64,000 nucleotides of DNA from a virus. Below, piece after piece: positions 16,701-56,046 of this stretch; the stretch's first letter is position 1, and every line of letters starts with the position of its first letter. The stretch lies in the IMG/VR virus record IMGVR_UViG_3300044713_000194, positions 43,637 through 107,636 of that record. One strand, written 5' to 3'. A program made the position numbers and the translations under genes. The notes below the pieces were generated by a model. That model worked only from the letters and a program-made list of their open reading frames with translations, ran no database searches and had not been told where the DNA came from.

Positions 16701-19700
16701 TGCGGATCGGTGAGTGGTAGAGTCTCCGTCGTTGCGATGGCGAAAATCTCACCCAACCTACGTCCGGCCTTTTTCGACGCGGCGAGCTTCGGCTCACTGG
16801 CCGGACTTTCGATCGAAGGAACGTCGAGCACGTGTACCTGTTTTGGATCGAAAATCACGATGTTGCGAGGTGTTATTGAACCCTCCGCCTTGATTCCACC
16901 AAAACCAGTTTCCTGGATTATACGGTCGAGGAACGCCCAATTAGGTTCGCCGCGCGGATCACTCCAAATCTCCGCCCTATGCGTGTCGTAAAACTCAGCC
17001 CCCTTCTTGCGTCCATAGAGCTTCTCCAGAATCGCCAGAGGTGTGTTGGGCGATTCGGCGTTGATCGTCAGTAACCGCACATCTCCGATCGAGAGCGAAA
17101 GAATCTGATGATTCTCATGCTTCTTGAAATGCGGGTGCATCGGCTGCTCGCTGACGTAGACGCCGGGGCCGAGTTCGCCCCCCACACTCGGGCGAAACCC
17201 CTCCCTGCGAATCACATCTGCAACGCCGGTCGAGTGGTAGTAGATTTTATTTTTGGAAGCGGTGATGCTTGCCTTCTCGGGATTGAAGTCGCCGTTGTTA
17301 CCTATTGCGCTCTTGATCTGGTTGGCGCTAAAGACCGCATAGATGTTGCCCGACGCAGGTGTGCCGTCATAGCCGTTCTCGAAGATGACACCATCGTTAC
17401 CCTGTTTCTTGGCGCTCTCAATCTCACGACCCTTGACATAGCGGATGTCGTATACAGTCTTATTTCTAAGATTGAAATACTCGCCGCGAAACTCATCGGG
17501 CATTTTTGCCAGATCAACAATTCGTGGGTCCTTCAGTGCCAAATACACCGGCATTAAACGTGCCCCATCGCGCCAGCCACCAAAGTAGGTTGCAACTTCA
17601 GGATTCGAAGCAAACCAGGACACCCCAGCGATATTGTCCACGGGACTATCACTCGCCCGCTCACCCTTGTCCGGGTCAAAGGTGTCAAAGTAGGCATTAG
17701 TACCGTGATAAACGCGCAACGGACGTCTATGGTCATCGACTACCTTCGACCCGGCAAACCACGCCTTAAATGCCTGGGTCTCGGTGATGTCACCCGGCTG
17801 ACCCATCCAGTCCTGGTCTTGTGTCGGCCCATCGGCAGTCTTCGCTATAGTGCCGTTCAGCGTAATAACCTTCCTCTCCTTGCTCGGCGTAATGACGGTG
17901 ACTTCACGAATTGTGAAGCTCTTCCCTTTCGTAGTGTCCAGCCCCACATATTTAGCTTCCGCGCCCGGCTTGACGTATGCGATCGTGCAATGGGGCTTGT
18001 AATCGAAGTTGGGCTCGGTGAACCAGTGACCGTTCGTCCTATCACCTTGGCGGCCCAGATAATCGTTGACCTCAAACAGTTCGGGGCATTCGACCGGTGC
18101 AATTATGACCGCAGCATTGTCGCTCGACTCGGAAGGCGGGAACGACGCAGTACTTCCGAGTTTGGCCTGCATAGGGGGTACGGTGCCGAGATATGCCTCG
18201 ATAGCCGAAGTGTCCTCGAACTTGACGCCGTAACGTACGGTAACGTGGTTTTTACCGACGCGGGCTCCCATGCCAGCAAGATCCGTCACGTCGATTTGAT
18301 CGCGCACTTCCTCGATAGCCTCGTTGGCGGCGCTATCTTCGGGAAGGTCTGCCTGGACAGTGCCATAGCTGACCTTGGCGGGTGCGTTGGCTCGTTTCTG
18401 CGTTGCATCTAGGGGGATCACATACCGGTTCAGCCTCTCGTCGAAGCTCACGGGGTATCGCTGCTTAAGATGATCCCACGCTCTTTCGTCGGTCGGCTGG
18501 CGTTGATCGTCAGAAAGGAAGAACTTCGCGCCGCGCTTCTTCGCTTCCGCAATGGCCTTATCGTAAAGAATCTGGCCAAGGCCCGTACCGCGCCATTTGG
18601 AGTCCACTCCGATATAGCGCAAGCGAAAGGCCTTTTGCCCGTCATATCTCGTGCGATATACTGAACATCCCCCGACATGCCGTATCTCGGCAGGCTCATT
18701 CCGGAGTTCTGCGACCAGGTCGAACATGGGACCGTCGTTAGTGATCCGTAATTCCAACTCAGAGATTGGAGTCGGCGGTTGCTTAAGTTCGGCCTGCTTC
18801 GACGCGTAATGCTGGGGCCGCCGCGCCTCAACAGCCTTACAGTTGCTGAGAACGAACCACTCCGCCTGCATCCCGCTGTAGTGACTCTCACCCTGTCGAA
18901 CGCGCATACGCCAGGTCACGAGGGACTCAAGCGCCACACCTTGCACCTTACCGACCGTCTTCCAGACGATTCCGTTCGGGCCATCCGCGAAACCCGCAGC
19001 AGTCTTGTAATTCGCGGACCACGATAGAAGCGGGAAGTGGCTCCCTGTCCAAACCGCCTTTCCGTCGTGATAGTAAGAGTCGGCCCCGGAGTAATATGGT
19101 TCTCCGCGATATAGACACTTGTCCTCGGGATCGGCGGCCCACGGATTTGGAGTGAGAGTTGGTACTGTTTTGATCAACGCCACCAGCTTGTCTGTGAGCG
19201 GCGATTCGCTGAGAATGTCCGGGTGTTGAACGTAGGATGTGATAAGATTCCAGAGATCGTCGTCATTCGCAATCTCATAGCAGACCTTGTCATACTTCGT
19301 TTTAGGAGTTCCATCGTCGTCAAATGCAGCGGCCTTTGGCCCCTTACGCCGATTCAAGTTCCAACGATTCGGCTTATCGGAAAAATGGCTTGGAGCCAGT
19401 TCTTCACCGAGTTCAAAATCCTCGCGCGAAATGGGCGCAGTTTCATCCTCTTTAAGAGCCCGCACCACGTTAGTCAGGAACTTGCGAAAAATCGGCGCTC
19501 CGACCGTGGGGTTGAAGAGATAGATGCGATAGTAGCTCTGAAATGCGTTGCTCTTCCGCGAGAGAATATCCCAGCCGCCTTTGCGCCGAATCCAGATGTA
19601 GACTTCGCGGTCCTCCATCCCCGACTCGCGAAAATCGTGTACGGCCTGGCGAGCAAACGCGGCGATCTCCACCTCATTACCGAGATACTTCGTTACATCC

Positions 19701-22700
19701 CCGTATGGGGACGCTTGCTCGCTTTGGGGAGTGTGGTAGCCTTTATCGAATTTCTCTAAAGTCTTTTCGTAAGCTTGACCACTGGGGTCTTTTTTGCCCT
19801 TGTCTGTACGCCAGCGATCGAACTGGAGCGCGTGTGTGCGCTCATGCACCAGCACACCGGTCGCCTGTTTGACAAAATCGTCCCACCAGCTTGTTCCGTT
19901 CGCTGCGGCATCCCCCAGGTACGATCCCAGACCCGGGCTCAACTTCAAAAGGATCGGGTCAGTACCCGTCCCCATTGCGTTGTATGCGCCGCCCACTCGG
20001 AACTTCAGTGTCCCCGATGCGACAACGGTCGCCGGTGTTCCTTGATAGCGCACCTCAACCGCGTAATCAAGCGCGGCGCTGATTAGCCGAGCAAACTGAT
20101 CATCGCTAACCGCTCCGTGCTTAGCCTCGTCGGCAATCCAATCTCGCGCCCGCTCCAACCCCTTCTTTGCCCACTCTGCATCCGAATCGATCTTTGGGAG
20201 GGAGGCATAAACGCTGTGACGGTTCTCATCAAATTTGCCGGAATTATTCACCGACTTAATCTGATTGGGCTCAAAGACGGCGAACACCGAAGGGTCGCTA
20301 AGATCGATACCGCTCGATGAGATGAACTTTTCACCGGCGACCCACAAGCCGTCGAATCCTTTCGACTTTAAATTCTCGCGCCAGCGCTCAAACCAGGCAG
20401 TGTCCTTCGCGTGCAGATCGCGAATCTCATTCCAGCGGCTGCTCGTGATCTTGTATGGCCGCCGCATCCGGAGGTAAACCTCCATCTGATTCTTGCCGAA
20501 CAATTCGGAGAGATTCGGGTCAGTGGTGAACCAGAAGCCAAACTTGGATGGGCCTGACTGCGATTTCGCGCGATCGAAGGTGTCAAATTCCGCATCGGTT
20601 CCGTGGATCACCGGCAGCGGGTTGCCTTCGCTGTCCACAATCTGTGAGCCGTTGAACCAGGTGATGAATGCTGAAGTATCTGTTACGGGTCCAGCAGACT
20701 GCGGCTTAGCCACCTCCCGCTCAGGGGGAGCCGCAGGTGCGGTGGCTGCGGTCTTAACTGCCTTGCCATTCTCAAACCACTTGATACTTTTGATGGCGCT
20801 ACGGGGAATATCCGCCTCGATGCGCCGATAGCAATCTCCTTGTTTCTTATGCTCAGGATCGGGCTGGCTTTCCCCGGCCCATTCGAACGTAACAACCGCG
20901 CTCTCTCCGGGCTTGTCGAGTTCGTGCCATGAGATCGACTTACCATACTCGTAAGCGAAACCCGGCAACGTCGTGCACCACACATACTTCTTGGGGTACC
21001 TTGGATTCTTACCGTGCCCGGCTTTGATGCCTTCCTGCGCGATCTTTTCAGCAGCGGCCCAAGTGGTGCCGTGATAGTAAAGGCGTGTTGTAGACTCCGC
21101 TGGTGCCTCCACTGCGGCGGTCACCTTGTTGCTCTCCGGATCGAAGGTCCCCACATTGCCTTCAGCGTCTACGATCTGGGAGCCGGAGAACCAGGCCTTG
21201 AAGGCCGGGCTCCCGGTGACCGGTGCGCCTGGTGTTTTGACGGCGGCAATCTTGGTTTCCGCAAGCAAACGACCGTAATCCACATCCATGATCTTTTTTG
21301 CTTTTGCGACTGGAACCTCTTCGCCGCCGATCAGGTAGCGCGTATTGCCGGGGCCGAAAACCTTCTCGCGAATTTGAAGCGGGCCACTTCCTTCTAGGGC
21401 TCCCCGTAACAGGTGTACCCCACGGGCCTTCAACTCCTTCTTCGCCATTTGGTACAGCTTCAGAGCAATGCCTTGGCGTTGGTAGTTTCCCTTGACATCG
21501 ACAGCCATCACCGTCGCCGAGCCTGGGTTGCGGTAGTCGATCTGGAGGAGACCTACGCGAGGGATGCCGTCCTCATCGTCGGAATCCATATCAAACGCGG
21601 CCAGGTCGAAACCATTCGGACGGCGGGTGATACCATATTGAAGCGATTCTTTAGATTCTGTGGTTGAGGCCTCTTTCGGAATTCCCGCGTCAACGTCGCG
21701 CGTTACAACCGAGATATTCGACGGCGGAATGGTTGTCCCGACCACCAGTTCGTAGTCGGCGGTAGTCTTTAGCAACTGCGCGTCGGATGGGACACTGACC
21801 TTAAGCAGCGCCAACCTGGTTTCCTCTCCGAACTGCTCACCCAACCAGTTGTCAAGGGCAGTCTCCACTGCCTCCACATCACGGAATAGATAAATAGCGC
21901 CCAATGGCTCGCCCAGTGCACGGGACCGTGGCCCCTGCTTTGGTACCAGCCCCTCGGTCATAATCCGCTTAAGGTTCCGCGCCGGTGTAATGTGGTACCC
22001 AATACGCGAGGCCTGACCAGGGGTAATCACGGAGGCCGTCTTCGACTCACCCACGGGGAAGCGTCCGGATTTCTTGATCTCCTTCATCATCGAGCGGATT
22101 TCACGCATCGTTCCGTACAAAGGGAACCGCTCATGATTGCCAATGAAGTCGCGGCGGAATTCTTCCGGCAGCCAGGGACCCTTGAGATCGTATTGCCCAG
22201 GGGCCATGCCGAAGTCGTGGGCCATCTCGTCGAGCGTCCGCTTGCCCTTCACATCGAAGTCACCCTGGCCGGGGACGCGGCAAAAGGCATGTGTTATTTC
22301 GTACGGTATCCCGTCATCCCACGCCTTTCCATCGGGATTCGATAGGGCGTACACCTTCGCGCCGGGGTTCAGCAGACCAAGGGCGACGGCAAAAACGCCG
22401 CATTCTTTGCTCTCGCGAATATCGTGATCGAGGGCGGAGGCCGACTTCTTTGTCTCCTCGGCAGGAACGACCGCCAAAATTTCAAGCTTCGACGGATCGA
22501 AGACACCCAGATTCACGTGTCCTTCCCCCGTTTCAAGGAAGGAGTCGTAACCGTTCGCCTTCATCCAACGCACGAATTCGGGGCTCTGCGTCGCATCCCA
22601 ATTCCGCTGCGCGAGCGCCTTCATGTATCCTTCAGGATCTTCACTGCCGTCCGGCCAAATCTCATCGGCACAGATGGCGTCGTAGACTTTCTTCCCGAGG

Positions 22701-22993
22701 GCCGGATAGGTTTTAGGGTCGAGGTAGTACCGCTGGCTGTAATCAAGCAGGGTATCCCCATCAAAGGTGTTGCTTACGTCGGCGCGGACGGTGTAAACCC
22801 ACCCGTGGAAGCCAGCATGTGCTCGTGCAAAGCCTAGATCGGGTGTGAGAAAGATCGGCTGCTCTGCGATCTCCCGGGTAACGCCCCCCTTTGACGTGGT
22901 CTTGAACTGGTCGAAGCGATGGTGCGAGCCGTGGTACCACGTCCGTGCTGCCGCATCGTTACCAGGTTTTGGAAGCAGCCGGTCCAATCGCAA
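13718..22993 (-). CDS. Giant polyvalent multidomain protein: several ADP-ribosyltransferase-like domains, 2 GNAT, 2H phosphoesterase (Acb1-like), ParB-like, HExxH zincin/SprT-like and papain-like modules
   Basis: YHGS/YHGT/YHIT ART motifs; YRG..SWS..QAE; YQRQGIA and WRGTGLG GNAT motifs; HVT/HCT pair; LDGNHRL; HERTH and HELAH. Confidence 0.85.
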   Translation of the reverse strand: MRLDRLLPKPGNDAAARTWYHGSHHRFDQFKTTSKGGVTREIAEQPIFLTPDLGFARAHAGFHGWVYTVRADVSNTFDGDTLLDYSQRYYLDPKTYPALGKKVYDAICADEIWPDGSEDPEGYMKALAQRNWDATQSPEFVRWMKANGYDSFLETGEGHVNLGVFDPSKLEILAVVPAEETKKSASALDHDIRESKECGVFAVALGLLNPGAKVYALSNPDGKAWDDGIPYEITHAFCRVPGQGDFDVKGKRTLDEMAHDFGMAPGQYDLKGPWLPEEFRRDFIGNHERFPLYGTMREIRSMMKEIKKSGRFPVGESKTASVITPGQASRIGYHITPARNLKRIMTEGLVPKQGPRSRALGEPLGAIYLFRDVEAVETALDNWLGEQFGEETRLALLKVSVPSDAQLLKTTADYELVVGTTIPPSNISVVTRDVDAGIPKEASTTESKESLQYGITRRPNGFDLAAFDMDSDDEDGIPRVGLLQIDYRNPGSATVMAVDVKGNYQRQGIALKLYQMAKKELKARGVHLLRGALEGSGPLQIREKVFGPGNTRYLIGGEEVPVAKAKKIMDVDYGRLLAETKIAAVKTPGAPVTGSPAFKAWFSGSQIVDAEGNVGTFDPESNKVTAAVEAPAESTTRLYYHGTTWAAAEKIAQEGIKAGHGKNPRYPKKYVWCTTLPGFAYEYGKSISWHELDKPGESAVVTFEWAGESQPDPEHKKQGDCYRRIEADIPRSAIKSIKWFENGKAVKTAATAPAAPPEREVAKPQSAGPVTDTSAFITWFNGSQIVDSEGNPLPVIHGTDAEFDTFDRAKSQSGPSKFGFWFTTDPNLSELFGKNQMEVYLRMRRPYKITSSRWNEIRDLHAKDTAWFERWRENLKSKGFDGLWVAGEKFISSSGIDLSDPSVFAVFEPNQIKSVNNSGKFDENRHSVYASLPKIDSDAEWAKKGLERARDWIADEAKHGAVSDDQFARLISAALDYAVEVRYQGTPATVVASGTLKFRVGGAYNAMGTGTDPILLKLSPGLGSYLGDAAANGTSWWDDFVKQATGVLVHERTHALQFDRWRTDKGKKDPSGQAYEKTLEKFDKGYHTPQSEQASPYGDVTKYLGNEVEIAAFARQAVHDFRESGMEDREVYIWIRRKGGWDILSRKSNAFQSYYRIYLFNPTVGAPIFRKFLTNVVRALKEDETAPISREDFELGEELAPSHFSDKPNRWNLNRRKGPKAAAFDDDGTPKTKYDKVCYEIANDDDLWNLITSYVQHPDILSESPLTDKLVALIKTVPTLTPNPWAADPEDKCLYRGEPYYSGADSYYHDGKAVWTGSHFPLLSWSANYKTAAGFADGPNGIVWKTVGKVQGVALESLVTWRMRVRQGESHYSGMQAEWFVLSNCKAVEARRPQHYASKQAELKQPPTPISELELRITNDGPMFDLVAELRNEPAEIRHVGGCSVYRTRYDGQKAFRLRYIGVDSKWRGTGLGQILYDKAIAEAKKRGAKFFLSDDQRQPTDERAWDHLKQRYPVSFDERLNRYVIPLDATQKRANAPAKVSYGTVQADLPEDSAANEAIEEVRDQIDVTDLAGMGARVGKNHVTVRYGVKFEDTSAIEAYLGTVPPMQAKLGSTASFPPSESSDNAAVIIAPVECPELFEVNDYLGRQGDRTNGHWFTEPNFDYKPHCTIAYVKPGAEAKYVGLDTTKGKSFTIREVTVITPSKERKVITLNGTIAKTADGPTQDQDWMGQPGDITETQAFKAWFAGSKVVDDHRRPLRVYHGTNAYFDTFDPDKGERASDSPVDNIAGVSWFASNPEVATYFGGWRDGARLMPVYLALKDPRIVDLAKMPDEFRGEYFNLRNKTVYDIRYVKGREIESAKKQGNDGVIFENGYDGTPASGNIYAVFSANQIKSAIGNNGDFNPEKASITASKNKIYYHSTGVADVIRREGFRPSVGGELGPGVYVSEQPMHPHFKKHENHQILSLSIGDVRLLTINAESPNTPLAILEKLYGRKKGAEFYDTHRAEIWSDPRGEPNWAFLDRIIQETGFGGIKAEGSITPRNIVIFDPKQVHVLDVPSIESPASEPKLAASKKAGRRLGEIFAIATTETLPLTDPQKFDFFNSTDKGKVTSLSKSLEEGRELSPILVAKRRNGHYLVLDGNHRLQAALNAKKAEIEAYVVTWADLKKVLNAYFDGEIPPEASELDDYILLNDENLEPYSKRAHIAAEQVNWRPILTELMAVLQPGLETPEVKIVNRPSAGWLGCDVWKFGQQQNGDPHGALNTTIELQKSIMSDENTVRRVLAHELAHHEDNLVNKWKELEEKGYKLFKIRQQYDFTKGHGPSWLAIAARFNAKYGEGFVTPHSDESYVVDESVIKPFFVLMHRYVNGKLMWAHASRLSPKMEKRITEIVEHKNPGSYRYKLFKTNDRFYLKSPTIGLSGSAYPQNEEQTAKVEKLWEEGEDIIGRYAPSSKVAAKKEPHEVPKTQYLSENQPCSVSMDLYGKLRGARNGQIIGTLGDFLQGKALRDLYRKALNVPIMALNKAVENGRVVDNKDYIFHGALGSYQGKMTIFMNPQSQDQMTTILEEGAHACRVSLGRQDPKQNFETITQEEHDSITGEQTAAKMVQHALELIKKHPTWDHASAMFKAIDKGIEPYAGWENDYPQLVTYRKKKQESPDGVVENLHPDADKTASIPNQLHIPDRPLTQEYDAIRRVYQWYGDNNVDSLPWARFQKQFQQIAQKYTPLLNEIRHNRPVVTREDLAQWLESYHETAAPDYEVSFDRYHAGENSFRDVEQLVLQINQGANAESILAEDPVLEQYVDMVRQSSTMSGHPSGDKTVGWLRVDFVNEHYLLVDEVQTDLVNSVTQAKAIVESRTFAEFMEKVQSEKIREAIREKGIDAARFTQVRRSFIAQGYTAEKLDEIKDKLTHLFKDWASHALSTLLEIARRHGIKHVALHTVDSIAARDQAVEPGKVKMYYDNLAKSFGFKQQDLNAGPLKGKFWVRTASHLPEDDVRRIADKSPEYGEEGAKMAASKEISAQLRAIDKVNPEFGEKIAAALNASPWKRYYTFSVETLADGTYLMVDKRFRQSDMLGIVNWMSGFSAGLAAK

Positions 22994-25267: not shown

Positions 25268-25345
25268 GCCCGAGTGAAGGGAAATGGCAGACCTCCCCGC
25301 CTTAAGATCGGGGGCTTGTCGGTTCGAAGCCGACCTCGGGCACCA
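25268..25345 (+). tRNA. tRNA-Leu(TAA), short variable loop
   Basis: Loop CT-TAA-GA; 78 nt; no long variable arm; A73-CCA. Confidence 0.82.
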
Positions 25346-25554: not shown

Positions 25555-25649
25555 GGTGTCGTGCGTGAGAGACTGAAACGACTCGCTTGGAAAGCGAGCA
25601 GCCCGGCTGAAACCCGGGCTCCTGGGTTTGAATCCCAGCGACACCGCCA
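25555..25649 (+). tRNA. tRNA-Ser(GGA)
   Basis: CTCGC-TTGGAAA-GCGAG arm, long variable arm, CCA. Confidence 0.9.
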
Positions 25650-29518: not shown

Positions 29519-29595
29519 TGGTCGGCCCAGGTCGCATCGAACGACCAACCTCGGCCTTATCAAGACCGCGCTCTAGCCAATTGAGCTATGGGCCG
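29519..29595 (-). tRNA. tRNA-Ile(GAT)
   Basis: Loop TT-GAT-AA, CCA. Confidence 0.92.
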
Positions 29596-30284: not shown

Positions 30285-31080
30285 TTCAACGGCGCATCGC
30301 CGCCCTAACCACCGGCGACATCTACGCGCGAGAGTCAGATCGCTATCACCATCGACCTGCGCCCGGGCTCCGGAACGGGTACGTCTGATTCAGGCCGGGC
30401 TCTTTGCCAATTAGAAGACCTCACCGCCGCGTGCAATCTACCTGCTGTGGGCAAGCCGCATCTGCGGTAATTGAGGGAGGGATTCGAACCCTCATTCCCC
30501 GGCATCTCAATGTTTGCCCCCTGCGGCCACCCCTCGCGCAGGGTTACAGCCGTATTTGGTCAGGAGGTCTTTAGCGCGGATCATGGGGCGCTTCAACGGA
30601 CGAAGTCCTCGACCATCCCTCACGGCTCGACCGGGTATCTAATCCGGCCTACCCCTTTACGTTGCGCCTTACCGCCGTGGCCGCATCGCGCTGCTCCACG
30701 GTTCTCTTATGGGGCCGGTAGCCCGTTTCCGCTCTAATGCACCTGCGTGCGGCTGGGAGTCGAACCCAGCCAAGCTGCCGTTGCCCAGCCTGGTTGATGA
30801 CGATGCGCGGGTCGGGTCGGATTCGAACCGACGATCGGCGGTGGTGCCCACCGCTGCTTTAGTCCGCCTAAGCTACCGACCGCGCATCTTTCCGCCCGGT
30901 CCCATCGACCACGCGACTACCGTCTCTTGGCGTTTCGGACCCCACCCCCGGGGTCCAGACGGTGCCTGCTCGCTCGGAACCTTACCGGGCGGAAACCTAA
31001 ATGGGGTCTTTTATCCCTTACGGGTGTCGCTCAGAGCGCCTGCCGAAGCATAAAACTCCGCCACAACATTTTCCCCATAC
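30285..31080 (-). ncRNA. Candidate large (~800 nt) structured ncRNA, GOLLD-like in size and context, with an embedded tRNA-like element
   Basis: No credible CDS; many long stems (e.g. TTCCGCCCGGT/ACCGGGCGGAA, 30890-30994) and several T-loop-like hairpins; begins directly after tRNA-Val. Confidence 0.55.
30804..30886 (-). pseudogene. tRNA-like element with non-canonical anticodon loop and no CCA
   Basis: D-like arm and T arm GTCGG-TTCGAAT-CCGAC; anticodon arm GCGGTG-GGCAC-CACCGC. Confidence 0.6.
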
Positions 31081-33348: not shown

Positions 33349-33427
33349 TGGAGGCCCCGGCGCGATTTGAACGCGCGACCTACCCGTTAGGACCGGGTTG
33401 CTCTTGTCCGGGCTGAGCTACAGGGCC
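33349..33427 (-). tRNA. tRNA-Arg(CCT)
   Basis: ACCCG-GTCCTAA-CGGGT arm (G32), CCA. Confidence 0.9.
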
Positions 33428-35863: not shown

Positions 35864-35955
35864 TGGTGCGCCCGGCAGGATTCGAACCTGCGGCGGGAGT
35901 TTCCTCCGTCCGATTAAAAGTCGGGTCCCTGCTAACCAGACTCGGGTACGAGCGC
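35864..35955 (-). tRNA. tRNA-Lys(TTT) with long variable arm
   Basis: Loop CT-TTT-AA; variable hairpin GGAG-GAAA-CTCC; 92 nt; A73-CCA. Confidence 0.82.
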
Positions 35956-35963
35956 GTTAAAAC

Positions 35964-36038
35964 TGGTGGGCCGTCAGAGGATCGAACTCTGCTCTGAGGA
36001 TTAAGAGTCCCCTGCTTCGCCGACAAAGCTTACAGCCC
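35964..36038 (-). tRNA. tRNA-Lys(CTT)
   Basis: Loop CT-CTT-AA, CCA. Confidence 0.9.
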
Positions 36039-37057: not shown

Positions 37058-37088
37058 CAAAGCAAAACCCCCGGCCTTAGCCGGGGGT
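37058..37088 (-). terminator. Attenuator terminator 2
   Basis: ACCCCCGGC-TAAG-GCCGGGGGT then TTTGCTTT. The 5' arm region CACGACCCCC is complementary (with a bulge) to the leader end GGGGGTTCCGTG. Confidence 0.88.
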
Positions 37089-37114
37089 CGTGAACCTACG
37101 AGTAAACCACTCGG

Positions 37115-37216
37115 TTACACGGAACCCCCCAGCACGCGATCCCATCCTTCGCGCACTACGCTCTCCATCCGCTTAACGCGGATGTTGACAGTCGTTTTTA
37201 TGGTCCTGGAGTTCAT
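37115..37216 (-). CDS. Attenuator leader peptide 2, MNSRTIKTTVNIRVKRMESVVREGWDRVLGGSV
   Basis: GAAGGA RBS; contains AGG, ATA, AAA, ATC, CGC, AAG, CGG, ATG, GTA, GAA, GGA, TGG and GAT, matching all 13 downstream tRNAs. Confidence 0.85.
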   Translation of the reverse strand: MNSRTIKTTVNIRVKRMESVVREGWDRVLGGSV

Positions 37217-38165: not shown

Positions 38166-38243
38166 TGGCCCGAGGAGCGGGAGTCGAACCTGCCCACCGG
38201 ATGACTGCGCAGACCCCGGCGCTACCCACATGCCAGTCCTCGG
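38166..38243 (-). ncRNA. CCA-terminated tRNA-like RNA with degenerate anticodon arm
   Basis: Acceptor CCGAGGA/TCCTCGG-GCCA and T loop TTCGACT intact; centre weakly paired. Confidence 0.55.
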
Positions 38244-39720: not shown

Positions 39721-40926
39721 TCAGTCTTTATAGGGGTCCCGCTCTGTCGAAGACGCCATTGCCACGCCAACCGGCGTCAGCCGGTGCAGAATCTTGACCG
39801 AGTCCTCGACTGAAGCCAGGACCTCGTCAAGGCGCTTGTAGCAATCCGGCGACTCATCGAGGCCGCCGCCGCGAAGCTCGATACCCGCGCGATCGATCCA
39901 GGCACGCATCATCTCCTGGGTAACTTTGCCTTCACGGACGACGCGGACTTCACCCGTCTCCTTGTTCTTCTTGGTAACACCGGTCGCTTCCTTGCGCCCC
40001 ATCGCGCGGCCTGCACCGTGCACGGTCGAGTAGAGAGAGTACTTTGCGTTCTCGTTCTCGACACCCTCAAGGATCACCGACTGCTCACCCATCGAGCCGC
40101 CGACAAAGCCCTTCCGGCCTGGGTAGGCCGGTGTTGCCCCCTTACGGACAACCCAATACCACTCACCGCCATGGAATTCACGCCATGCATAATTGTGGTG
40201 GTTGTGGACTTCCTCAATAACGGGAGCGCCGAGAATCTTTGCAACGCGATCACATACCCAGTCGCGGCCCGAATAAGCGTAGGCACCGGCCAAATGCATC
40301 GCCAGGAGGTACTGGTCACCGAGATCGCTCTTCACGTCAAGCACGCATGGCTCAACCTCCATGCCGTCCTTCGCTCCGGCAGCCTTGAGGAACCAGGTTG
40401 CGATGCCGTGGCCAAGACCGCGCGAACCGAAGTGCACGCCAATCCAGACGCGATCCTGCTCGTCGGTGAACAGGTCCACGTAGTGGTTGCCGGAGCCCAC
40501 CGTACCAAGCTGAACGACAGCCTTCTGATGCAGAGGCTTGCAGGCCGCCAGCTTCCACGCATCGGCATGGGCGAAGTCTTCCCACAAGACGGAGCTATCG
40601 ACCTTCTCGTTGTTCTTGCGGCCTACGCCGAAGCTGATCGTCTTCCACACGTCGTCCATGATCGTCTTGATGTTGGCGCGAAGCTCCGTGCCGGTCATGT
40701 CTACGCGGACTGCCTTGTTGCCGCAGCCGATGTCGTAGCCCACGCCGGTCGGGCTGATGGCATCCTTGTACGCCACCACTCCGCCGATCGGCACACCGTA
40801 GCCCAGATGGTTGTCTGGCATCAGCGCCACCTTGTCGGCGGTCTTCGCGCACGTGCGTATCTGGTTGAGCGTCTTCTCGTCGGCTTCGCCGAATACCGGG
40901 ATCTTTCCGTCAATGAGTTGCATCAT
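39721..40926 (-). CDS. rtcB: RtcB RNA ligase (2',3'-cyclic phosphate/5'-OH)
   Basis: MPDNHLGYGVPIGG, GYDIGCG, GSGNHY, HFGSRG, NHHN, RKGAT, HGAGR, DESPDCYK. Confidence 0.95.
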   Translation of the reverse strand: MMQLIDGKIPVFGEADEKTLNQIRTCAKTADKVALMPDNHLGYGVPIGGVVAYKDAISPTGVGYDIGCGNKAVRVDMTGTELRANIKTIMDDVWKTISFGVGRKNNEKVDSSVLWEDFAHADAWKLAACKPLHQKAVVQLGTVGSGNHYVDLFTDEQDRVWIGVHFGSRGLGHGIATWFLKAAGAKDGMEVEPCVLDVKSDLGDQYLLAMHLAGAYAYSGRDWVCDRVAKILGAPVIEEVHNHHNYAWREFHGGEWYWVVRKGATPAYPGRKGFVGGSMGEQSVILEGVENENAKYSLYSTVHGAGRAMGRKEATGVTKKNKETGEVRVVREGKVTQEMMRAWIDRAGIELRGGGLDESPDCYKRLDEVLASVEDSVKILHRLTPVGVAMASSTERDPYKD

Positions 40927-42519
40927 TTCTTTTCTCCCGCGACCTCGTCTTTTGACCAGTACCACTTTCCCTTATTCTGCACTACGCCCTTGAATCCACG
41001 CGGTGGGCAAAACTCGCGGCCTTCTATGTCGAGGAATGCCCGCTTGCGAGCCCGTATAGCGTAGATACCGTCCCTCATGCATGGTTGGGGCACAATTGGC
41101 AGTAGAACTGCGATCGCCATCAACGTTCACACCTGGGCTGTCCAGTAGTTCTCGCGTCGAATGCAATCGAGGCAAGCTCCGCAGCCGCTGCAATGGCTTA
41201 CCGCCGGTACCCGCATTGCCGCGAGGACGCGTGCCGCCAAAGTATCGTCGAACTTTTCGGATCGTCCATCGAAGAAGCCTCTCATAGGCTCCTGCCGTGG
41301 CCGATAGCAATGCTTTCGAATCTCGTCTGCGGTCTTGATGTCTTGTGCGATCGGCTTCACGTCACAATGAATGCAGAGGCGGTTGACGATGTTTACCGAG
41401 CCGCAACGATCACAGAAGGCGTGACCGTCCGCGCGGTAGTTGATGCCGTCGCGCATGGAGTACTCCATGGGCTCCGCCGCACATTCGTCTCCCGTGGTAT
41501 TTGGCATGTTCCGAAAACCTCCCTAGTGGCTAATACTGAGGCGGAAGGACGGAATTCACATACCCATTAACATTATTCCAAATATTCTTGGTGACCGCCC
41601 TGCGCCGCCCGTTTATGTGCTTCGCGGCGTTTCCGCTTGTGTCCAAAGTACTTATCGGCGTGACAAAGCTTTGAGCCGCAGCCAAGGTTCCACTTGGAGT
41701 ATCGACCCCAGGCGGAAGGCTCCGTGGGATGGACACGGTTGATGAGGTTGGTGCGTTCCTGAACGCGGTGACTGTCGGTCCAGACGTGGTCATGGATAAA
41801 GCGCCGCTTCGCGATGACGCGGTCGCGCTGGTGCCGACGTTCGGCACGATTGGTTGGATGACTCATGGCTGATGCCGCCCCCTTCGTGCGGTGTGTTACA
41901 TCGAAGCCATGAATTCCTCCTCGGACACTTCCACAAGAATCGCCCCCGTTTCGTCTTCAATTATCCACTTGCGATCGAGCCCAAGCTCAATCAGTTCGCG
42001 TACCCCGATTTCAGGAGGCACATCGGCCAGGTTCCTCAGCCGGATTTCACTCAGCCTAATTTGGAGAGACCGAAGACTGAACATCGTTCCATTGAGTTCC
42101 CGCAGCGCGGCTTTGAAATCGAAGATACCGTTCATAAGTCTGTGCCCTTGTGTGTTTCCAGTTGGTGTGGATCAGAAGGCGCAAGAAATTCAGTACCGGG
42201 CTGTTTTCGATGAACTCCACTGGGAGGCCGTCACGACCGATCGGAGTCTTGCCGAATATCTTCACCCTCGCCCCCTTTCTCTACTGGCGCATGATCCGAT
42301 TCCGGCAACATACACTTAGGAATCTCCGTGCGTATTCCGCCGATATATGCGCACACCTCGATACAATCGTCCCAGCTATGCCCGTCCTTGCGCATATTGC
42401 GCACCAGGCGCTCCAGCCCGCGCCGAAAGTTCCGGATTTCCCGCCTACGCTGGAGCCACTTTTTCAGCCAGATCATATTCGCCTTTCGTCAAACTTCCCG
42501 GCGTCTTGCCACTGAGACC

Positions 42520-42768: not shown

Positions 42769-42847
42769 TGGAGGGAGGGGAGGGACTCGAACCCTCAAAA
42801 ATCGTGAGCCACAGTCACGCGCGTCTACCAATTCCGCCACCGACCCC
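42769..42847 (-). tRNA. tRNA-His(GTG)
   Basis: CGTGA-CTGTGGC-TCACG arm, G-1, CCA; two acceptor-stem mismatches. Confidence 0.85.
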
Positions 42848-43423: not shown

Positions 43424-43507
43424 TGGAGCCGGGCAAGGGATTCGAACCCCCGATGTTTGTGTAGCGGTTTACAATACCGCCGCTTTCGACCACTCAGCCA
43501 ACCCGGC
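43424..43507 (-). tRNA. tRNA-Thr(TGT), enlarged variable loop
   Basis: GCGGT-ATTGTAA-ACCGC arm (A32); 84 nt; CCA. Confidence 0.85.
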
Positions 43508-45400: not shown

Positions 45401-45475
45401 TGGCTGGCGGAGGAGGAATCGAACCCCTCATTCAACGGGCCAAAACCGTTTGTCCGACCGTTAGACGATCCGCCA
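45401..45475 (-). tRNA. tRNA-Gln(TTG)
   Basis: AACGG-TTTTGGC-CCGTT arm, G73-CCA. Confidence 0.9.
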
Positions 45476-50691: not shown

Positions 50692-53600
50692 TTAGACGTT
50701 CCGAACCCAATTTTCTTCAGGGGTCAGTTCGTCTTCCGTGGCGGCGGGCACCATTATGTCAACCGGTGAGCCCGCGTACGCGCCATCCCGCTGATCCGGA
50801 AACAGAGCCCAGCCGTTGGACTGCTCACGGTAATCGGCATCCGGCTTGAGCGCTGGGTTTTTGCTGAGGCCAGCAGTCTTAAGGTTTCTAAGCATCCGCA
50901 ACACTGCGACGCGGGCGCGGGCCATTTCCTGGGTCCGATACGGCGGCTCACTGTTTGCCAATCCAGCGTTCAGCAAAACCGTATCGAGAGGGCACTCGAA
51001 AATACCTTCGGCACCGACGATTCCATCTAAGAACTCGGCTTCCGTCAGCCGTCCACGAGCATCGTAGTAAGCCTCTCCGACTTTGAGACCGACATGGCCC
51101 GGATACGCCGATTGATTTGTGGATACAAATACACCTTCCCGGAATTTCTCCTTCAAAGCCAAAGCGAAATCAAAGCAGCCACCCGCCAACCATGGACGCA
51201 TCCACGCCTCATATTTTGCGGTCTTGACCAACTCATCGTCAATTCCTCGCGCCTTTGCCTCATCGCTCAAATCCATCACCGTGAAATGAACCCCGTCTAC
51301 ACTAAAGAGATGGCGACGCCCAAAGTTTACCCAGTTCTGAAGATTATTCAGGTCGGCGTACTGCTGACCCCACACATAATCGGCCCCAAGATCCAGAGGA
51401 ATCGCACGAAGACGACGGCCAAGACCTGAACCACGGTATTCAGGAATTACAAACAGGGCAACGCCTTCAACACCCCGAAGATCTCGATATGGGGCTGTGG
51501 CTGGAACCTCTGGGTTGTAAATCGACCGATGTGTGAGAATATAGCCGCCAACCACCTTCCCTTGATCTTTTGCGACGTAGGAGTGCGAAAAATCACCTCC
51601 GGTTGCGTCTATGATGATCGACCGAAAAAGGTTCGCGTACTGTGGGAAGCTCTGCTCACCAGCGACTAGTAAGGCGGGGATGTCAGATTTTGAAACTACC
51701 GAAATGGCAGGGGCGCTCGCTTGCTTGGCTCCGTTGACATCCTCAGTGACGGTAAGCCGCCGGATCAATTCATAGGAATTTGTGAACAAAGCCACCAACC
51801 CGGAGTGATAATCACCGGGATTGTTCTTGATGTCCGCTTCCAAGTCCTCAAAAGTCACCCAGGCGATGTGGTCCGTCTCCCAACCAAAGCCGGGCTCGGG
51901 ATGGAGTTCAAATTCCTCTGCGACCTCGCCGAGAAAATTGTAATACTTGAATGATCCGGAGGAGAAGACAAAAGCCGGATGCAGCGTGATCGATCCGTGG
52001 TAGCCGGTCTCCTCCTGAAGCTCGGACATGGCACTCTCTGAGGGGTTCTTGTCCTTCTGAATCGCGCCCCCCAGGGTACCGAAGCAGTCGCCCTGGTTCA
52101 CTTCGCTACTGCGCCAGGCGAGGCAGATGCGCCTTGTGCTCTTGCAGATAGGCAGGATTCCGGACGCACCCCCACCTTCGCCGACCCAGAAGCCGTTATC
52201 GTCGTAGTGGTCTGCAACCTTAATCGCCGGTGTCTCACGGGATGCCACGATTGTGATGTCGGCGACTGAGAACATGCCGGTGCCTGGCTCGACCTGGCGA
52301 GCCTTGTCGTCCCAGTGCTCCACCATGCCCGGGTCCTTCTCATTCGTCGCGTCGAGGCGCGTGCCAACGAACTCCTCGGTCCAATCGCCGATGGCGGCGC
52401 GAATCTTCTCGGCATTTTCCTTATCGGCCATACGGGCGGTGAACACCTTGATTGTTTCACCGTTCTTGAGGGCTGTGCGAACCTTCTCCACCATTTCCAT
52501 GATGGGCTCACCGATCTTGGTTGGATCGGAGTAGTCATCCAGTGCGACCGCGATCGTATCGTCGAGGTCCACTCCGATCCAGGGCTTATACTGCGGCTCC
52601 TCGACAGATGCGGTGATCTTGTTCGAGTTTGAATCAAATTGGCCACTGTTTCCAATCGCGGACTTGATCTGATTCGGACGGAACACAATCCAGCTATCGT
52701 TCCCCGGGTCCTCGACGACGTTCTCGTACACAATGCCGTCGTAGCCCATTGATTCGAGAAGCTTCAGGGCGTCTTCGTTGTCGCGACACTCTTCGAACTG
52801 ATCGATGTCAATGATTTCCCGTTCGAGCAGGGTAGTAGCGATCGCCTCCGTACTTTCCCAACCGCGTGGGTACTGTTCATCCTCATCAATGTTTGTGTCA
52901 TCCTCATCGCGCTCACGAATTGGTTCGCCGGTGTTGATGTCAAGTGACGCCAGATCGGGCAGCCGCAGGGGGTGTACAACACTGAGATACACCGGCATGA
53001 TGTTTGAGCCCGACGCACGGGCAGGGTTCTTGATCTCGTCGTTGTAGAAGTTCCACAGGTCACGGTGACGGTCGTTGGCCGCCTGCTGTGTCCCGAAGTG
53101 CGTAAATGGCCGGAACTCTTCGATGTCCCCAGTCTGAGTAGCGTGGTACATCACCATTGGACGGCCCTGACCATCGACAACCTTCGAGCCTGAAAACCAG
53201 GCCTTGAATTGCGGGGTTTCGGTAATGTCCTGAACAGGGACCTCGGCCTCGGCCACCGCTGCTTGACGCTTCTTTGTCTTCGGAAACACGATGTCTTTCG
53301 GTGCCACGTACGGCAGTACAAACTGCACCGCACCGCTCGCAATGTCAGCATCGTCCGGGTCCGGCAACAACTCGCGAAGGGTTGTATGGATCTCCAGGGT
53401 GACTGGGGAGCCTTTGCGGCGTTGCGTGGAGTTCCGTCTGTACCCCTCGACTGCCGGGCCGGAAACTTCCGTTGTTACGTACACACCCGCACCCGAGTTC
53501 TGGTACAAGTTTGACTTCCGCACGTCCCCTCTCAAGCCTTCACGCTTGATCTGCGGCACCAGGCCGCTCGACGTGTGATGGAAGACTGTCACCGGAAGAT

Positions 53601-56046
53601 CGCCGATAAGTTCTTCGACCTCAGGGGTTGCTTTCCAGAATGTGATGTAGCCGTCGTCCCGGACATCGACCTGGTGTTGATCCCGCAACCAGTCATTCAA
53701 GTAGTCGAGACGCAGCGAATCGTCGGCCCAGGCCTCATTGAATTCCTGCTCGTCCCCGAGGTATTCACGCAGCCACTCCTTGAATTCCTCACCGGCACGG
53801 GGCTCAATCGCCCTCAACGTCGCAGTCTCAGACGGGCTAGGAGCCCATGCCGCCGCCTTTGGCAGTTCCTTTTTCTTGCCAGGCTTCGGCTTGCCGTCCT
53901 TGTTCGTCAGCAACACAGAGCGATACTGCTCAAAGTTGCGCTCCACCCAATCGACCACGGCCTTAAGACGCTCATTCCGGTATACGGGTTTGCCGTGATC
54001 GTCATCTGGAAGGCACCACCCTTCGTCGCAGTCTGTCACGGCGATAATATCGCGGGCATCGTTACCCCAGAATATGACTTGTGGTTCCGAATCACCATAG
54101 TGGTATACCCGGACGCCGGACGCCCGGAAAATAACGCAGTGTTTTCCATACTTGAAGCCACGGCTGCCGTACGTAAAGTTCCTCACATGCTCCGGAAGAA
54201 ACGCAAAATTGTAGCCTCCCCACTCCTTTGCTCTATCCGGAAGGTTGGTTGTTAGACCAAGGCTGGCCATGTCGCTTACGCCAAATCTAAAACCTTCCTT
54301 GGCGATCGCGTCGGCATTGTCGGAAAAGTGTACCAGCCACTGATTCTTTACAACGCCCCTGTAATCCGAGTGCAGGTATAGCGGGGCCTCTGTCGGATCA
54401 TGCTCCATCAACCAGTCGCCGCCCTCCTCCAAGAAGCCAACCAGTAACGCGTCCGGAACGGCTGAGAAGTCGTCGATATACTCGACATCCTCATCGGGCC
54501 AAAGCGTCGGCACCAGGTCCGGATCGTTTTCCTCCACATATTCCTTGAAATGAAAGGGAGCAGTACGAGCGACTTCTTCGCCTTTATCCCGATCGCTCAT
54601 AGTCATATAGTTTTTGAGCCATACGACGTTATTGGGAATGAACGCCACCTTATCCATTGCCGACGTAGGCTCTGAATCAAGATCCCGGACCACTAGCGCT
54701 GGAAATTCCTTCTTGCCAAGAATGTGGAGAGCGCCGAGGCGATGTGCGCCTTCGAGAATATACGGACCCTTCTCGTCGATGACCACGATCAGCGGATTGA
54801 TCTCATTGGATTCACGGATCGCCTGAGCGAGTAGCCCTGTGCGCTCCATGTCGTCCTTGGCATAGAAAAGGTCACTCGGTGCACTGTCGAAAGCGGACAT
54901 CGGCACAACGCGAATCCCCTTCAACACCTCGTACTCATTGAGGCTGCTGCCAATCGAGGATGTGTTCGGAACGTCCTTGCGCACAAAGAGGCCGTCCACC
55001 ACTGGCTTGGCGGGAGGGTAATCTGCCGATGCGGATTTAGTTCTGCCGATACCCTTGGAGTTTACCACCTCGACTTCGCCGCCGTGAACGCTCTTCCATT
55101 GCCGCCAGAAATCTTCCGGGATCGTGCCGTAATGAAGCACCAGTTCGGCAACCTCTTTTCCATCGACCATCTTGCGAGAGCCGCGCGTCGGAATCTCTAC
55201 GACCGCGAGAATACGATTGGAACCGTGGTAACCAATCGGCGTCGTCACGCGGGCAGTGGCATTGACCTTGTCGTTGGTGTTAGCCAACAGACGAAGCGAG
55301 CGGGTAATAGGCTCAACTGCGCCACGAAACCGTGCCTCTGCCTCATTCACAGTCGGAACCGCCTGGTCGAGGGGTTCGACGGGTGGGTAACTGGATTTAT
55401 CTGTGACGGAATCGTACTCCGACATCACCTGATTCCAGCAGCGTGACCAGTTGTAGGTATCATCCTCCGGATTGCGGAAATGCTGGGTCGCCAGGCGGGT
55501 AAGCGCGGGCAGCCACGCCTGATCGGCCAGTTCTTCAAGCCGTTTGCGGAGATCGGCGTGGAGAGCTTTGTCAGAACCCTGAAATTTGTATTCAACACGA
55601 CGCAAGAAGCGATCGATGTAGGCCGTCCGCATCTCCTGAACCGTGTCGTGCCATTTTCCGTGTGTCGCCGCGACGTAATAGCAGCCAACCTGATAAGAGT
55701 TGTCCGACAACCGAGACAACGCTCCGCTCAGGCTTCCGACGATGTCGTCCTCATCCAGGTACATCGTGTTCGGTTGAAGCTCCATGATCACAACTACGAC
55801 GCTTCCGGTGCTCCTGTCACGCGGTGCTCCCTCCGCTGTCAGCAAATTCTTGCTGACATAGATCCCGCCATAGGAAACGCGACTCGGTGTGTGGATGTTG
55901 GTGTCCTTGTCGCTGTCCCAGTTCTTTTTCTTGACCTCCGGAATTAACCCCTGCGCCAAAATCGAACGCAAGTTCTTAAGACTGGACCCGTGATACCAGA
56001 TTGAACGAGGCGCGGCCTGTTTTGTGGAGACTTCTGACACCTTCAA
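50692..56046 (-). CDS. Second polyvalent multidomain protein: ART-like x3-4, ParB-like, HAD phosphatase, Nudix, GNAT and papain-like modules
   Basis: WYHGSS..GIYVS; EGAHRL; FHHTS..GVYVT; YHAT..NQIKSAIGN; GVDLDDT..DD; GG...SELQEETG; YRGSGLG; GCFDFALAL..H..YYDARG. Confidence 0.85.
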   Translation of the reverse strand: MKVSEVSTKQAAPRSIWYHGSSLKNLRSILAQGLIPEVKKKNWDSDKDTNIHTPSRVSYGGIYVSKNLLTAEGAPRDRSTGSVVVVIMELQPNTMYLDEDDIVGSLSGALSRLSDNSYQVGCYYVAATHGKWHDTVQEMRTAYIDRFLRRVEYKFQGSDKALHADLRKRLEELADQAWLPALTRLATQHFRNPEDDTYNWSRCWNQVMSEYDSVTDKSSYPPVEPLDQAVPTVNEAEARFRGAVEPITRSLRLLANTNDKVNATARVTTPIGYHGSNRILAVVEIPTRGSRKMVDGKEVAELVLHYGTIPEDFWRQWKSVHGGEVEVVNSKGIGRTKSASADYPPAKPVVDGLFVRKDVPNTSSIGSSLNEYEVLKGIRVVPMSAFDSAPSDLFYAKDDMERTGLLAQAIRESNEINPLIVVIDEKGPYILEGAHRLGALHILGKKEFPALVVRDLDSEPTSAMDKVAFIPNNVVWLKNYMTMSDRDKGEEVARTAPFHFKEYVEENDPDLVPTLWPDEDVEYIDDFSAVPDALLVGFLEEGGDWLMEHDPTEAPLYLHSDYRGVVKNQWLVHFSDNADAIAKEGFRFGVSDMASLGLTTNLPDRAKEWGGYNFAFLPEHVRNFTYGSRGFKYGKHCVIFRASGVRVYHYGDSEPQVIFWGNDARDIIAVTDCDEGWCLPDDDHGKPVYRNERLKAVVDWVERNFEQYRSVLLTNKDGKPKPGKKKELPKAAAWAPSPSETATLRAIEPRAGEEFKEWLREYLGDEQEFNEAWADDSLRLDYLNDWLRDQHQVDVRDDGYITFWKATPEVEELIGDLPVTVFHHTSSGLVPQIKREGLRGDVRKSNLYQNSGAGVYVTTEVSGPAVEGYRRNSTQRRKGSPVTLEIHTTLRELLPDPDDADIASGAVQFVLPYVAPKDIVFPKTKKRQAAVAEAEVPVQDITETPQFKAWFSGSKVVDGQGRPMVMYHATQTGDIEEFRPFTHFGTQQAANDRHRDLWNFYNDEIKNPARASGSNIMPVYLSVVHPLRLPDLASLDINTGEPIRERDEDDTNIDEDEQYPRGWESTEAIATTLLEREIIDIDQFEECRDNEDALKLLESMGYDGIVYENVVEDPGNDSWIVFRPNQIKSAIGNSGQFDSNSNKITASVEEPQYKPWIGVDLDDTIAVALDDYSDPTKIGEPIMEMVEKVRTALKNGETIKVFTARMADKENAEKIRAAIGDWTEEFVGTRLDATNEKDPGMVEHWDDKARQVEPGTGMFSVADITIVASRETPAIKVADHYDDNGFWVGEGGGASGILPICKSTRRICLAWRSSEVNQGDCFGTLGGAIQKDKNPSESAMSELQEETGYHGSITLHPAFVFSSGSFKYYNFLGEVAEEFELHPEPGFGWETDHIAWVTFEDLEADIKNNPGDYHSGLVALFTNSYELIRRLTVTEDVNGAKQASAPAISVVSKSDIPALLVAGEQSFPQYANLFRSIIIDATGGDFSHSYVAKDQGKVVGGYILTHRSIYNPEVPATAPYRDLRGVEGVALFVIPEYRGSGLGRRLRAIPLDLGADYVWGQQYADLNNLQNWVNFGRRHLFSVDGVHFTVMDLSDEAKARGIDDELVKTAKYEAWMRPWLAGGCFDFALALKEKFREGVFVSTNQSAYPGHVGLKVGEAYYDARGRLTEAEFLDGIVGAEGIFECPLDTVLLNAGLANSEPPYRTQEMARARVAVLRMLRNLKTAGLSKNPALKPDADYREQSNGWALFPDQRDGAYAGSPVDIMVPAATEDELTPEENWVRNV

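Follow-up and report, generated by a model that had tools for sequence, protein, structure and literature searches.

Long variable arms in bacteria are confined, according to textbooks and recent reviews, to the tRNAs for leucine, serine, tyrosine and selenocysteine. Canonical tRNA-Lys is a class I molecule, with a YUU anticodon (U35, U36), discriminator A73, a variable loop of 4-5 nt and a 4-bp D stem; the variable loop lies on the side from which a tRNA is approached by class IIb synthetases. Long arms on anticodons outside Leu, Ser and Tyr do occur in allo-tRNAs and other non-canonical Ser-type tRNAs, the allo-tRNAs having 8/4 or 9/3 acceptor/T stems and Ser identity.

Lys identity lies in U35, the rest of the anticodon and A73; Leu identity in E. 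coli in A73 together with A15-U48, G18G19 and A20a; Tyr identity in A73 and U35, both critical in E. coli; and Ser identity in G73 together with the arm (PMC9976931). The tRNA body is also read by enzymes that destroy it. The targets of the PARIS nuclease AriB are Lys(UUU), Thr(UGU) and Asn(GUU), which it cuts at 40|41, and it requires contacts beyond the anticodon stem-loop (PMC12409363); tRNAs of the T5 type escape it at normal length, through point changes at positions 39 and 41 (U39A, A41C). Here, we describe a phage tRNA-Lys(UUU) which, like the T5-type tRNAs, is an isoacceptor of a nuclease-targeted species in a tRNA array beside repair genes, but which retains U39 and C40 and differs instead throughout its core.

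The phage contig and its tRNA array

The window, that is the whole stretch of 64,000 nucleotides analysed, takes up the final 64 kb of an IMG/VR viral contig of 107.6 kb (GC about 56%), whose CheckV completeness of ~35% implies a jumbo phage. ARAGORN places 39 tRNA genes on the contig, all of them within the window and together covering all 20 amino acids; the sole tRNA(UUU) among them is a 92-nt gene called as tRNA-Lys. Its parts, and the three neighbouring features to which we refer below, are as follows.

35864..35955, minus strand: whole tRNA-Lys(UUU) gene, class II-type body, CCA encoded (ARAGORN and Rfam)
35949..35955, minus strand: 5' strand of the acceptor stem, GCGCUCG, pairing with 35868-35874
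35927..35946, minus strand: D arm, 3-bp stem CCC/GGG plus G13.A22 and a 12-nt loop with A14, G15 and G18G19; the register is partly ambiguous between the Rfam alignment and the ARAGORN brackets
35909..35925, minus strand: anticodon arm CCCGA-CUUUUAA-UCGGA, anticodon UUU at 35916-35918, C27.A43 mismatch, U36-A-A-U39-C40 followed by G41
35892..35908, minus strand: variable arm of 17 nt, made up of C, the hairpin GGAG-GAAA-CUCC (35896-35907) and four unpaired nucleotides, CGCC, ending in C48
35875..35891, minus strand: T arm GCAGG-UUCGAAU-CCUGC
35864..35874, minus strand: 3' strand of the acceptor stem, CGGGCGC (35868-35874), discriminator A73 (35867) and CCA (35864-35866)
35964..36038, minus strand: canonical tRNA-Lys(CUU), 75 nt, 8 nt upstream of the long tRNA-Lys on the same strand
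39721..40965, minus strand: RtcB RNA ligase gene within the tRNA array, a tRNA repair context (Pfam PF01139, E = 6.6e-69)
43424..43507, minus strand: tRNA-Thr(UGU) of 84 nt; its variable loop is unpaired, 12 nt long and ends in CAUCG, and its 3-bp D stem is class II-like

A sequence-only reading had reported a tRNA-Lys(UUU) with a class II, long-armed body, a GGAG-GAAA-CTCC variable hairpin, a class-II-like D arm and A73, and ARAGORN, Rfam and the predicted folds confirm every one of these observed elements. The 7-bp acceptor stem contains one U-G pair and is followed by U8 and A9, the T stem has 5 bp, and the anticodon stem consists of CCGA/UCGG plus the C27.A43 mismatch, with A26 present and a CUUUUAA loop; among the matches listed, 15 of 139 long Lys tRNAs have the same mismatch. 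The MFE fold and the centroid fold each contain the variable hairpin, and the whole molecule has a z of -2.25. Relative to canonical tRNA-Lys, the anticodon with U35 and U36 and the discriminator are shared, but the short variable loop has given way to a structured arm of 17 nt, and the 4-bp D stem to one of 3 bp that carries G13.A22 in addition and closes a 12-nt loop; the long hairpin and the 3-bp D stem are shared instead with bacterial class II tRNAs (Tyr, Ser, Leu). Allo-tRNAs differ in turn, since the present molecule has a 7/5 arrangement, A73 and no Ser determinants.

Such a departure from the expected build could mark a relic that has lost its function, or a decoy that resembles a tRNA but takes no part in translation. 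Aberrant tRNAs do occur within the array, and the window contains weak calls, with 32 Rfam hits set against the 39 ARAGORN calls and 7 of the 39 under the Rfam gathering score. The 92-nt gene, however, scores 48.2 bits against RF00005, for which the gathering score is 29, which places it within the tRNA family; its tertiary-pair positions (U8, A14, G15-C48, G18G19 and the T loop) are intact, its CCA is encoded, and it is conserved with compensatory changes across phages, at least 119 viral loci being involved. We regard a relic or decoy as extremely improbable.

Several other features of the window are unusual in their own right. The tRNA-Leu(UAA) at 25268-25345 (plus strand) is 78 nt long with a 5-nt variable loop, that is, a class I body on a Leu anticodon, and lies below the Rfam gathering score, as do six further ARAGORN calls (30807-30882, 38166-38243, 25555-25649, 29519-29595, 33349-33427 and 45401-45475); that at 30807, a Cys(GCA), is without CCA and has an odd anticodon loop. 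The tRNA-His(GUG) at 42769-42846 (minus strand) shares an identical, Leu-type D arm with the tRNA-Leu(GAG) of the same phage, and its acceptor stem pairs poorly; the Xanthomonas phages X1 and BUDD carry a similar His tRNA, along with a 77-nt tRNA-Leu(CAG) with a short variable loop. A 33-aa ORF at 37115-37216 (minus strand), described previously as a leader containing an AAA codon, does contain one AAA, and one AAG, among codons for many of the amino acids of the downstream tRNA block; after it, at about 37065-37100, stand a G+C-rich hairpin and a T run for which an attenuator had been proposed. Two giant polyvalent proteins are also encoded, one of 3091 aa (13718-22993, minus strand) with ART-PolyVal, GNAT and 2H-phosphoesterase domains and one of 1784 aa (50692-56046, minus strand) with ART-PolyVal, GNAT and NUDIX domains, and these are probably injected anti-defence proteins.

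A phage family of long-armed lysine tRNAs

The sequence-only reading treated the long tRNA-Lys as a single oddity, and in this respect it did not hold. A pattern consisting of a Lys-type anticodon arm, then a long variable region, then a T loop was run over IMG/VR and matched at least 119 viral loci, and ARAGORN confirms at least 124 long tRNA-Lys genes (at least 88 UUU and at least 36 CUU) of 81-94 nt. We define the family by a Lys anticodon arm, a variable region of 10-22 nt, a class II-type D arm and A73 or U73, the usual variable region being 1 nt, a stem of 3-5 bp, a GNRA loop and 3-4 unpaired nucleotides, and the 92-nt tRNA-Lys has every one of these elements. The long-armed tRNA-Lys family is large, conserved and mostly phage-borne. 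Versions with CUU and with UUU both exist and often occupy the sole Lys slots seen in an array, and short and long Lys(UUU) are both kept in 33 loci among the matches listed.

Cultured phages are among the carriers. X1 and BUDD each encode an 89-90-nt tRNA-Lys(CUU) of the same architecture, with the hairpin GGC-GAAA-GCC, directly after a normal 76-nt tRNA-Lys(CUU), and these are the nearest relatives of the 92-nt tRNA-Lys among those compared (72/88 and 70/89 identities, 78-82%). No proteins common to the window phage and X1 were detectable, which made a codon comparison with X1 impossible. The Caulobacter phiCbK group carries two long Lys tRNAs per genome, and further cultured carriers include Rhodobacter RcXuper, Xanthomonas XacN1, Mesorhizobium Cp1R7A-A1, Ruegeria and Roseobacter phages and a Microcystis phage. 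Arms are not restricted to lysine: in X1 and BUDD it is Lys and Asn, among tRNAs of class I type, whose variable regions are expanded, and in the window it is two such tRNAs, Lys(UUU) and Thr(UGU). phiKZ has a long-armed tRNA-Asn(GUU) of 87-89 nt (NC_004629 269557-269645; L199 395-481).

The same pattern, applied to one genome per species for 185,579 prokaryote species, matched 70 stretches, of which about 53 are true long tRNA-Lys, mostly in dense tRNA arrays on MAG contigs with up to 35 tRNAs per 8 kb. Five archaeal MAG matches (L125, L135, L145, L151 and L185) were rejected as family members, being normal tRNA-Lys genes with an intron; in these an insertion of ~12 nt in the 3' half of the anticodon stem mimics a long variable arm to the pattern search, and the insertions look like short introns at a non-canonical position.

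We also considered, and rejected, the idea that some cells depend on a long tRNA-Lys. The draft genome of Thalassospira xianhensis has 96 tRNAs, of which only two are tRNA-Lys genes, both long-armed. Since canonical tandem tRNA-Lys(UUU) genes, often at contig ends, are present in 27 of 30 congeners and missing from the three other drafts, and no long form was found in any of the 30 congeners searched, the case is best read as an assembly gap combined with an accessory array. The two long Lys genes lie on a 423-kb contig (G003 C1) with 36 tRNA genes in several arrays between 82 and 417 kb, a tRNA-rich region that is accessory and probably mobile, given its absence from the other Thalassospira genomes searched. 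Two actinobacterial MAGs have canonical Lys(CUU) and Lys(UUU) in the long form only, the MAGs being incomplete, and no flank synteny was found around actinobacterial long Lys(UUU) genes across six MAGs.

A chimeric body and a selected hairpin

In comparisons that left out the variable region and masked the anticodon, long-Lys bodies clustered with one another, 111 of 127 having a further long Lys as nearest neighbour. Region by region, among the loci listed, the acceptor stem and discriminator lie nearest to canonical short tRNA-Lys and the D arm nearest to Ser-type tRNAs and long Thr tRNAs, and the T arm and 3' half of the acceptor stem of the long tRNA-Lys resemble those of the phage's own tRNA-Tyr. 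Judged by its sequence, the body of the 92-nt tRNA-Lys is chimeric, with Lys-type ends and anticodon arm, a Ser-type D arm and a Tyr-like arm on a class II core. An origin from tRNA-Tyr, which we also considered, is borne out in part, the arm being Tyr-like but the D arm Ser-like and the acceptor stem Lys-like. A comparison of the anticodon stem-loops of short and long phage Lys tRNAs is biased by the search pattern, only 15 of the long ones being unselected.

The arm itself is a conserved structure. RNAalifold on a plain MAFFT alignment of 70 members recovered the acceptor, anticodon, T and variable-arm helices, and at three consensus pairs of the arm pairing is kept with both sides changed in 12, 35 and 37 of the 70 sequences. 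This strong covariation indicates that the hairpin itself is under selection. Among the matches listed, the typical arm has one unpaired nucleotide, a stem of 3-4 bp, a tetraloop (GAAA in 40, GCAA in 12 and GUAA in 6) and 3-4 unpaired nucleotides; the sequence of the stem varies across the family, and what is conserved is the shape and the GNRA loop. The number of unpaired 3' nucleotides, 3-4 in long Lys and in phage tRNA-Tyr, compares with 1-2 in Ser and Leu tRNAs among the loci listed.

A hairpin of conserved shape may act as a handle by which a partner, encoded or recruited by the phage, recognises the tRNA; the partner might be an enzyme that modifies tRNAs or adds CCA, a repair factor (RtcB or another) or an aminoacyl-tRNA synthetase of the phage. 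Phage tRNAs marked in this way would be processed, repaired or used in preference to others. RtcB is encoded in the window array and homologues are present in other long-Lys arrays (54% identity in L133, for example); SerRS, TyrRS and other proteins do grip long arms (PMC7609411; PMC9976931); and Grad-seq places the tRNAs of phiKZ, as a group, in ribosomal fractions, and as a group they sediment unlike host tRNAs (PMC8545117). However, no aminoacyl-tRNA synthetase or tRNA-modifying enzyme was found among the window ORFs scanned, the sequence of the arm stem is unconserved beyond its shape and loop, and the carrier phages have no detectable proteins in common, which makes a common dedicated partner unlikely. 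On balance a handle function seems improbable.

Amino acid identity

The 92-nt tRNA-Lys carries A73, U35, U36 and G15-C48. Among the matches listed, the Leu-type pair A15-U48 is present in 53 of 61 phage Leu tRNAs of the same loci, against 13 of 139 members of the long-Lys family, 95 of which have G15-C48. The family discriminator is A in 104 and U in 35 of the matches listed and never G, the residue found in 52 of 68 Ser tRNAs of the same loci, which also leave 1-2 nt on the 3' side of the arm stem (56 of 58, among the matches listed). In the other long-armed types the discriminator likewise matches the anticodon, with G in Asn (17/17) and Trp (9/9) and A in Ile (9/9) among the matches listed.

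Codon use in the phage is in keeping with lysine decoding. AAA accounts for 163 of the 585 Lys codons (28%) in 17 long ORFs of the window phage, and in a small sample of homologues from the loci compared it falls on Lys no less often than AAG (18 of 45 against 77 of 240 aligned residues), with neither Tyr nor Leu seen among the residues most commonly aligned to AAA. Given that the tRNA has neither the Leu-type A15-U48 nor the Ser-type G73, and that AAA stands at conserved Lys positions, it is most likely charged by LysRS. The side from which class IIb synthetases approach does mean that a long arm could hinder LysRS; even so, we think it highly probable that the 92-nt gene specifies a functional Lys-accepting tRNA. 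The suggestion in the sequence-only reading that it serves as a real Lys decoder thereby gains indirect support, from the Lys-type anticodon arm, acceptor stem and A73, from its being the only tRNA(UUU) and from AAA at conserved Lys positions. The accompanying suggestion that LeuRS could mischarge it fares less well, the pair typical of phage Leu tRNAs being replaced by G15-C48 and the D arm being of Ser type.

Charging by either LeuRS or SerRS appears unlikely. tRNA-Leu, which combines A73 with A15-U48 and a Leu-type D loop, shares A73 with the 92-nt molecule, but there the pair is G15-C48 and the D arm is of Ser type; tRNA-Ser has the closest D-arm sequence, but the discriminator is A73 rather than G73 and four 3' nucleotides of the arm are unpaired rather than one or two. 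If AAA were partly read as another amino acid, TyrRS would be the most plausible agent, and a more credible one than LeuRS, as the sole non-cognate enzyme whose known determinants (A73, U35 and arm geometry) are present. A73 and U35 are the critical determinants for E. coli TyrRS (PMC9976931), the arm has the geometry found in phage tRNA-Tyr (1 nt, 3-4 bp, a tetraloop and 3-4 nt), and the Tyr-like T arm and 3' acceptor half point the same way. The GUA anticodon of tRNA-Tyr, with G34 and A36, is nonetheless replaced by UUU, and mischarging by any of these enzymes sits poorly with the alignment of AAA to Lys rather than Tyr or Leu in homologues, with the Lys-like acceptor stems of the family, with the prevalence of G15-C48 and the lack of G73 described above, with a discriminator that tracks the anticodon in every long-armed type among the loci listed, and with the existence of CUU and UUU versions that often fill the sole Lys slots seen in an array. 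We therefore consider partial reading of AAA as another amino acid to be very unlikely.

The arm and tRNA-directed defence

The reading that we favour is that this tRNA-Lys(UUU), after charging with lysine by what we infer to be host LysRS, would serve a jumbo phage in reading AAA and, through wobble, probably AAG. The parts that LysRS reads (U35 and U36 of the anticodon, A73 and the acceptor stem) are Lys-type, whereas the usual core is replaced by one of class II, in which the D arm is Ser-type and the variable hairpin Tyr-like. Defence nucleases such as PARIS AriB, PrrC, RloC and similar enzymes recognise a tRNA through its body or cleave its anticodon stem on the 3' strand, which adjoins the point where the arm exits, and the arm would sustain Lys decoding while they destroy canonical tRNA-Lys. 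RtcB, encoded in the same array, would supply repair as a second line.

The distribution of arms over anticodons is suggestive here, in that the set targeted by PARIS (Lys, Thr with UGU, and Asn) is also the long-armed set. Among the loci listed, which were chosen for long Lys, long arms are found on 17 of 64 Asn(GUU) and 9 of 44 Thr(UGU) tRNAs. Within threonine, the 9/44 for UGU compares with 1/54 for GGU and CGU combined (0/30 and 1/24, respectively; Fisher p = 0.005, loci chosen for long Lys), and long arms are commoner on Asn and Thr(UGU) together than on the other class I types, with a Fisher p of 6e-9 in these same long-Lys loci. No long arms were found on Ala, Asp, Phe or Val tRNAs among the loci listed. 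Some of the long Thr(UGU) genes in other phage loci have hairpins. The enrichment is not exclusive to AriB targets, since arms also occur among the loci listed on Ile(UAU) (7/18), Trp (9/43), Cys (4/25) and His (5/46).

The long-armed tRNA-Ile(UAU) forms a second distinct long-armed phage tRNA type. It is found in L023, L032, L038, L052, L054, L055 and L060 (7 of 18 Ile(UAU) tRNAs), at 90-95 nt with a variable arm of 19-24 nt, and the loop of the arm has a conserved CCAGAUUAG-like motif.

A point against evasion is that the 92-nt tRNA-Lys retains the U36-A-A-U39-C40 that AriB reads; position 41 is G, where E. coli has A. T5 was considered as an experimental link to long arms and rejected: its PARIS-resistant tRNAs are of normal class I size (Lys 78 nt, Thr 75 nt and Asn 78 nt), so the published PARIS rescue experiments are silent on long arms. 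An arm may also be a liability, given that Septu PtuAB cuts the variable loop of tRNA-Tyr (PMC13096335).

A simpler account is that the molecule is a functional Lys tRNA whose arm has no role in defence, being an inherited feature of one successful phage tRNA lineage that has spread between arrays, and that might be kept for folding stability across many hosts or under incomplete modification. The coherence of the family, which looks like one lineage, fits this account, as does the lack of common proteins among the carriers, which would be expected of horizontal spread of a tRNA cassette. Phage arrays are moreover loose as to class, with a short variable loop in 42 of 103 Leu tRNAs among the loci listed and a Leu-type D arm on His, and GNRA-capped hairpins are generic stabilising modules. 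Such an account deals less readily with the strong covariation, which implies selection on the hairpin itself, with the non-random spread of arms over anticodons, with the frequent retention of short and long isoacceptors together and with the co-occurrence of tRNA repair genes with long-Lys arrays, X1 for instance encoding Pnk, RNA ligase and a CCA-adding enzyme. We judge it unlikely, if the most serious of the alternatives.

Taken as a whole, the proposal of a Lys-charged tRNA that belongs to a family, has a chimeric body and bears its arm for nuclease evasion, in which charging and the purpose of the arm are what we infer, is one that we hold tentatively, at a little below an even chance. 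For nuclease evasion as the reason for the arm, taken by itself and already suggested for PrrC and AriB in the sequence-only reading, the case is circumstantial and our confidence is somewhat lower again. The case draws on RtcB in this and other long-Lys arrays, the 2H-phosphoesterase domain of the 3091-aa polyvalent protein, the repair genes of X1, the enrichment of arms on Lys, Thr(UGU) and Asn, the retention of short beside long Lys(UUU), and the contacts that AriB makes outside the anticodon stem-loop. The wider notion, that a class II core on class I tRNAs may be a general phage counter-defence and a second escape route distinct from point mutations in the anticodon loop, is more speculative still, but we think it a possibility worth stating.

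Implications

A literature search, which included a review of non-canonical tRNAs (PMC7609411) and one of tRNA identity (PMC9976931), found no description of a long-armed tRNA-Lys; the long-armed phage tRNA-Lys family is apparently undescribed, and the gene in the window is one ordinary member of it. A large, conserved family of long-armed Lys tRNAs breaks the rule that reserves such arms for Leu, Ser, Tyr and Sec, as do the related Asn and Thr forms, and its existence indicates that long-armed bodies are probably tolerated by class IIb synthetases, by EF-Tu and by the ribosome. If it is true that the arm blocks defence nucleases, then it would represent a new and widespread form of phage counter-defence, and it would also offer a design principle for nuclease-resistant or orthogonal tRNAs.
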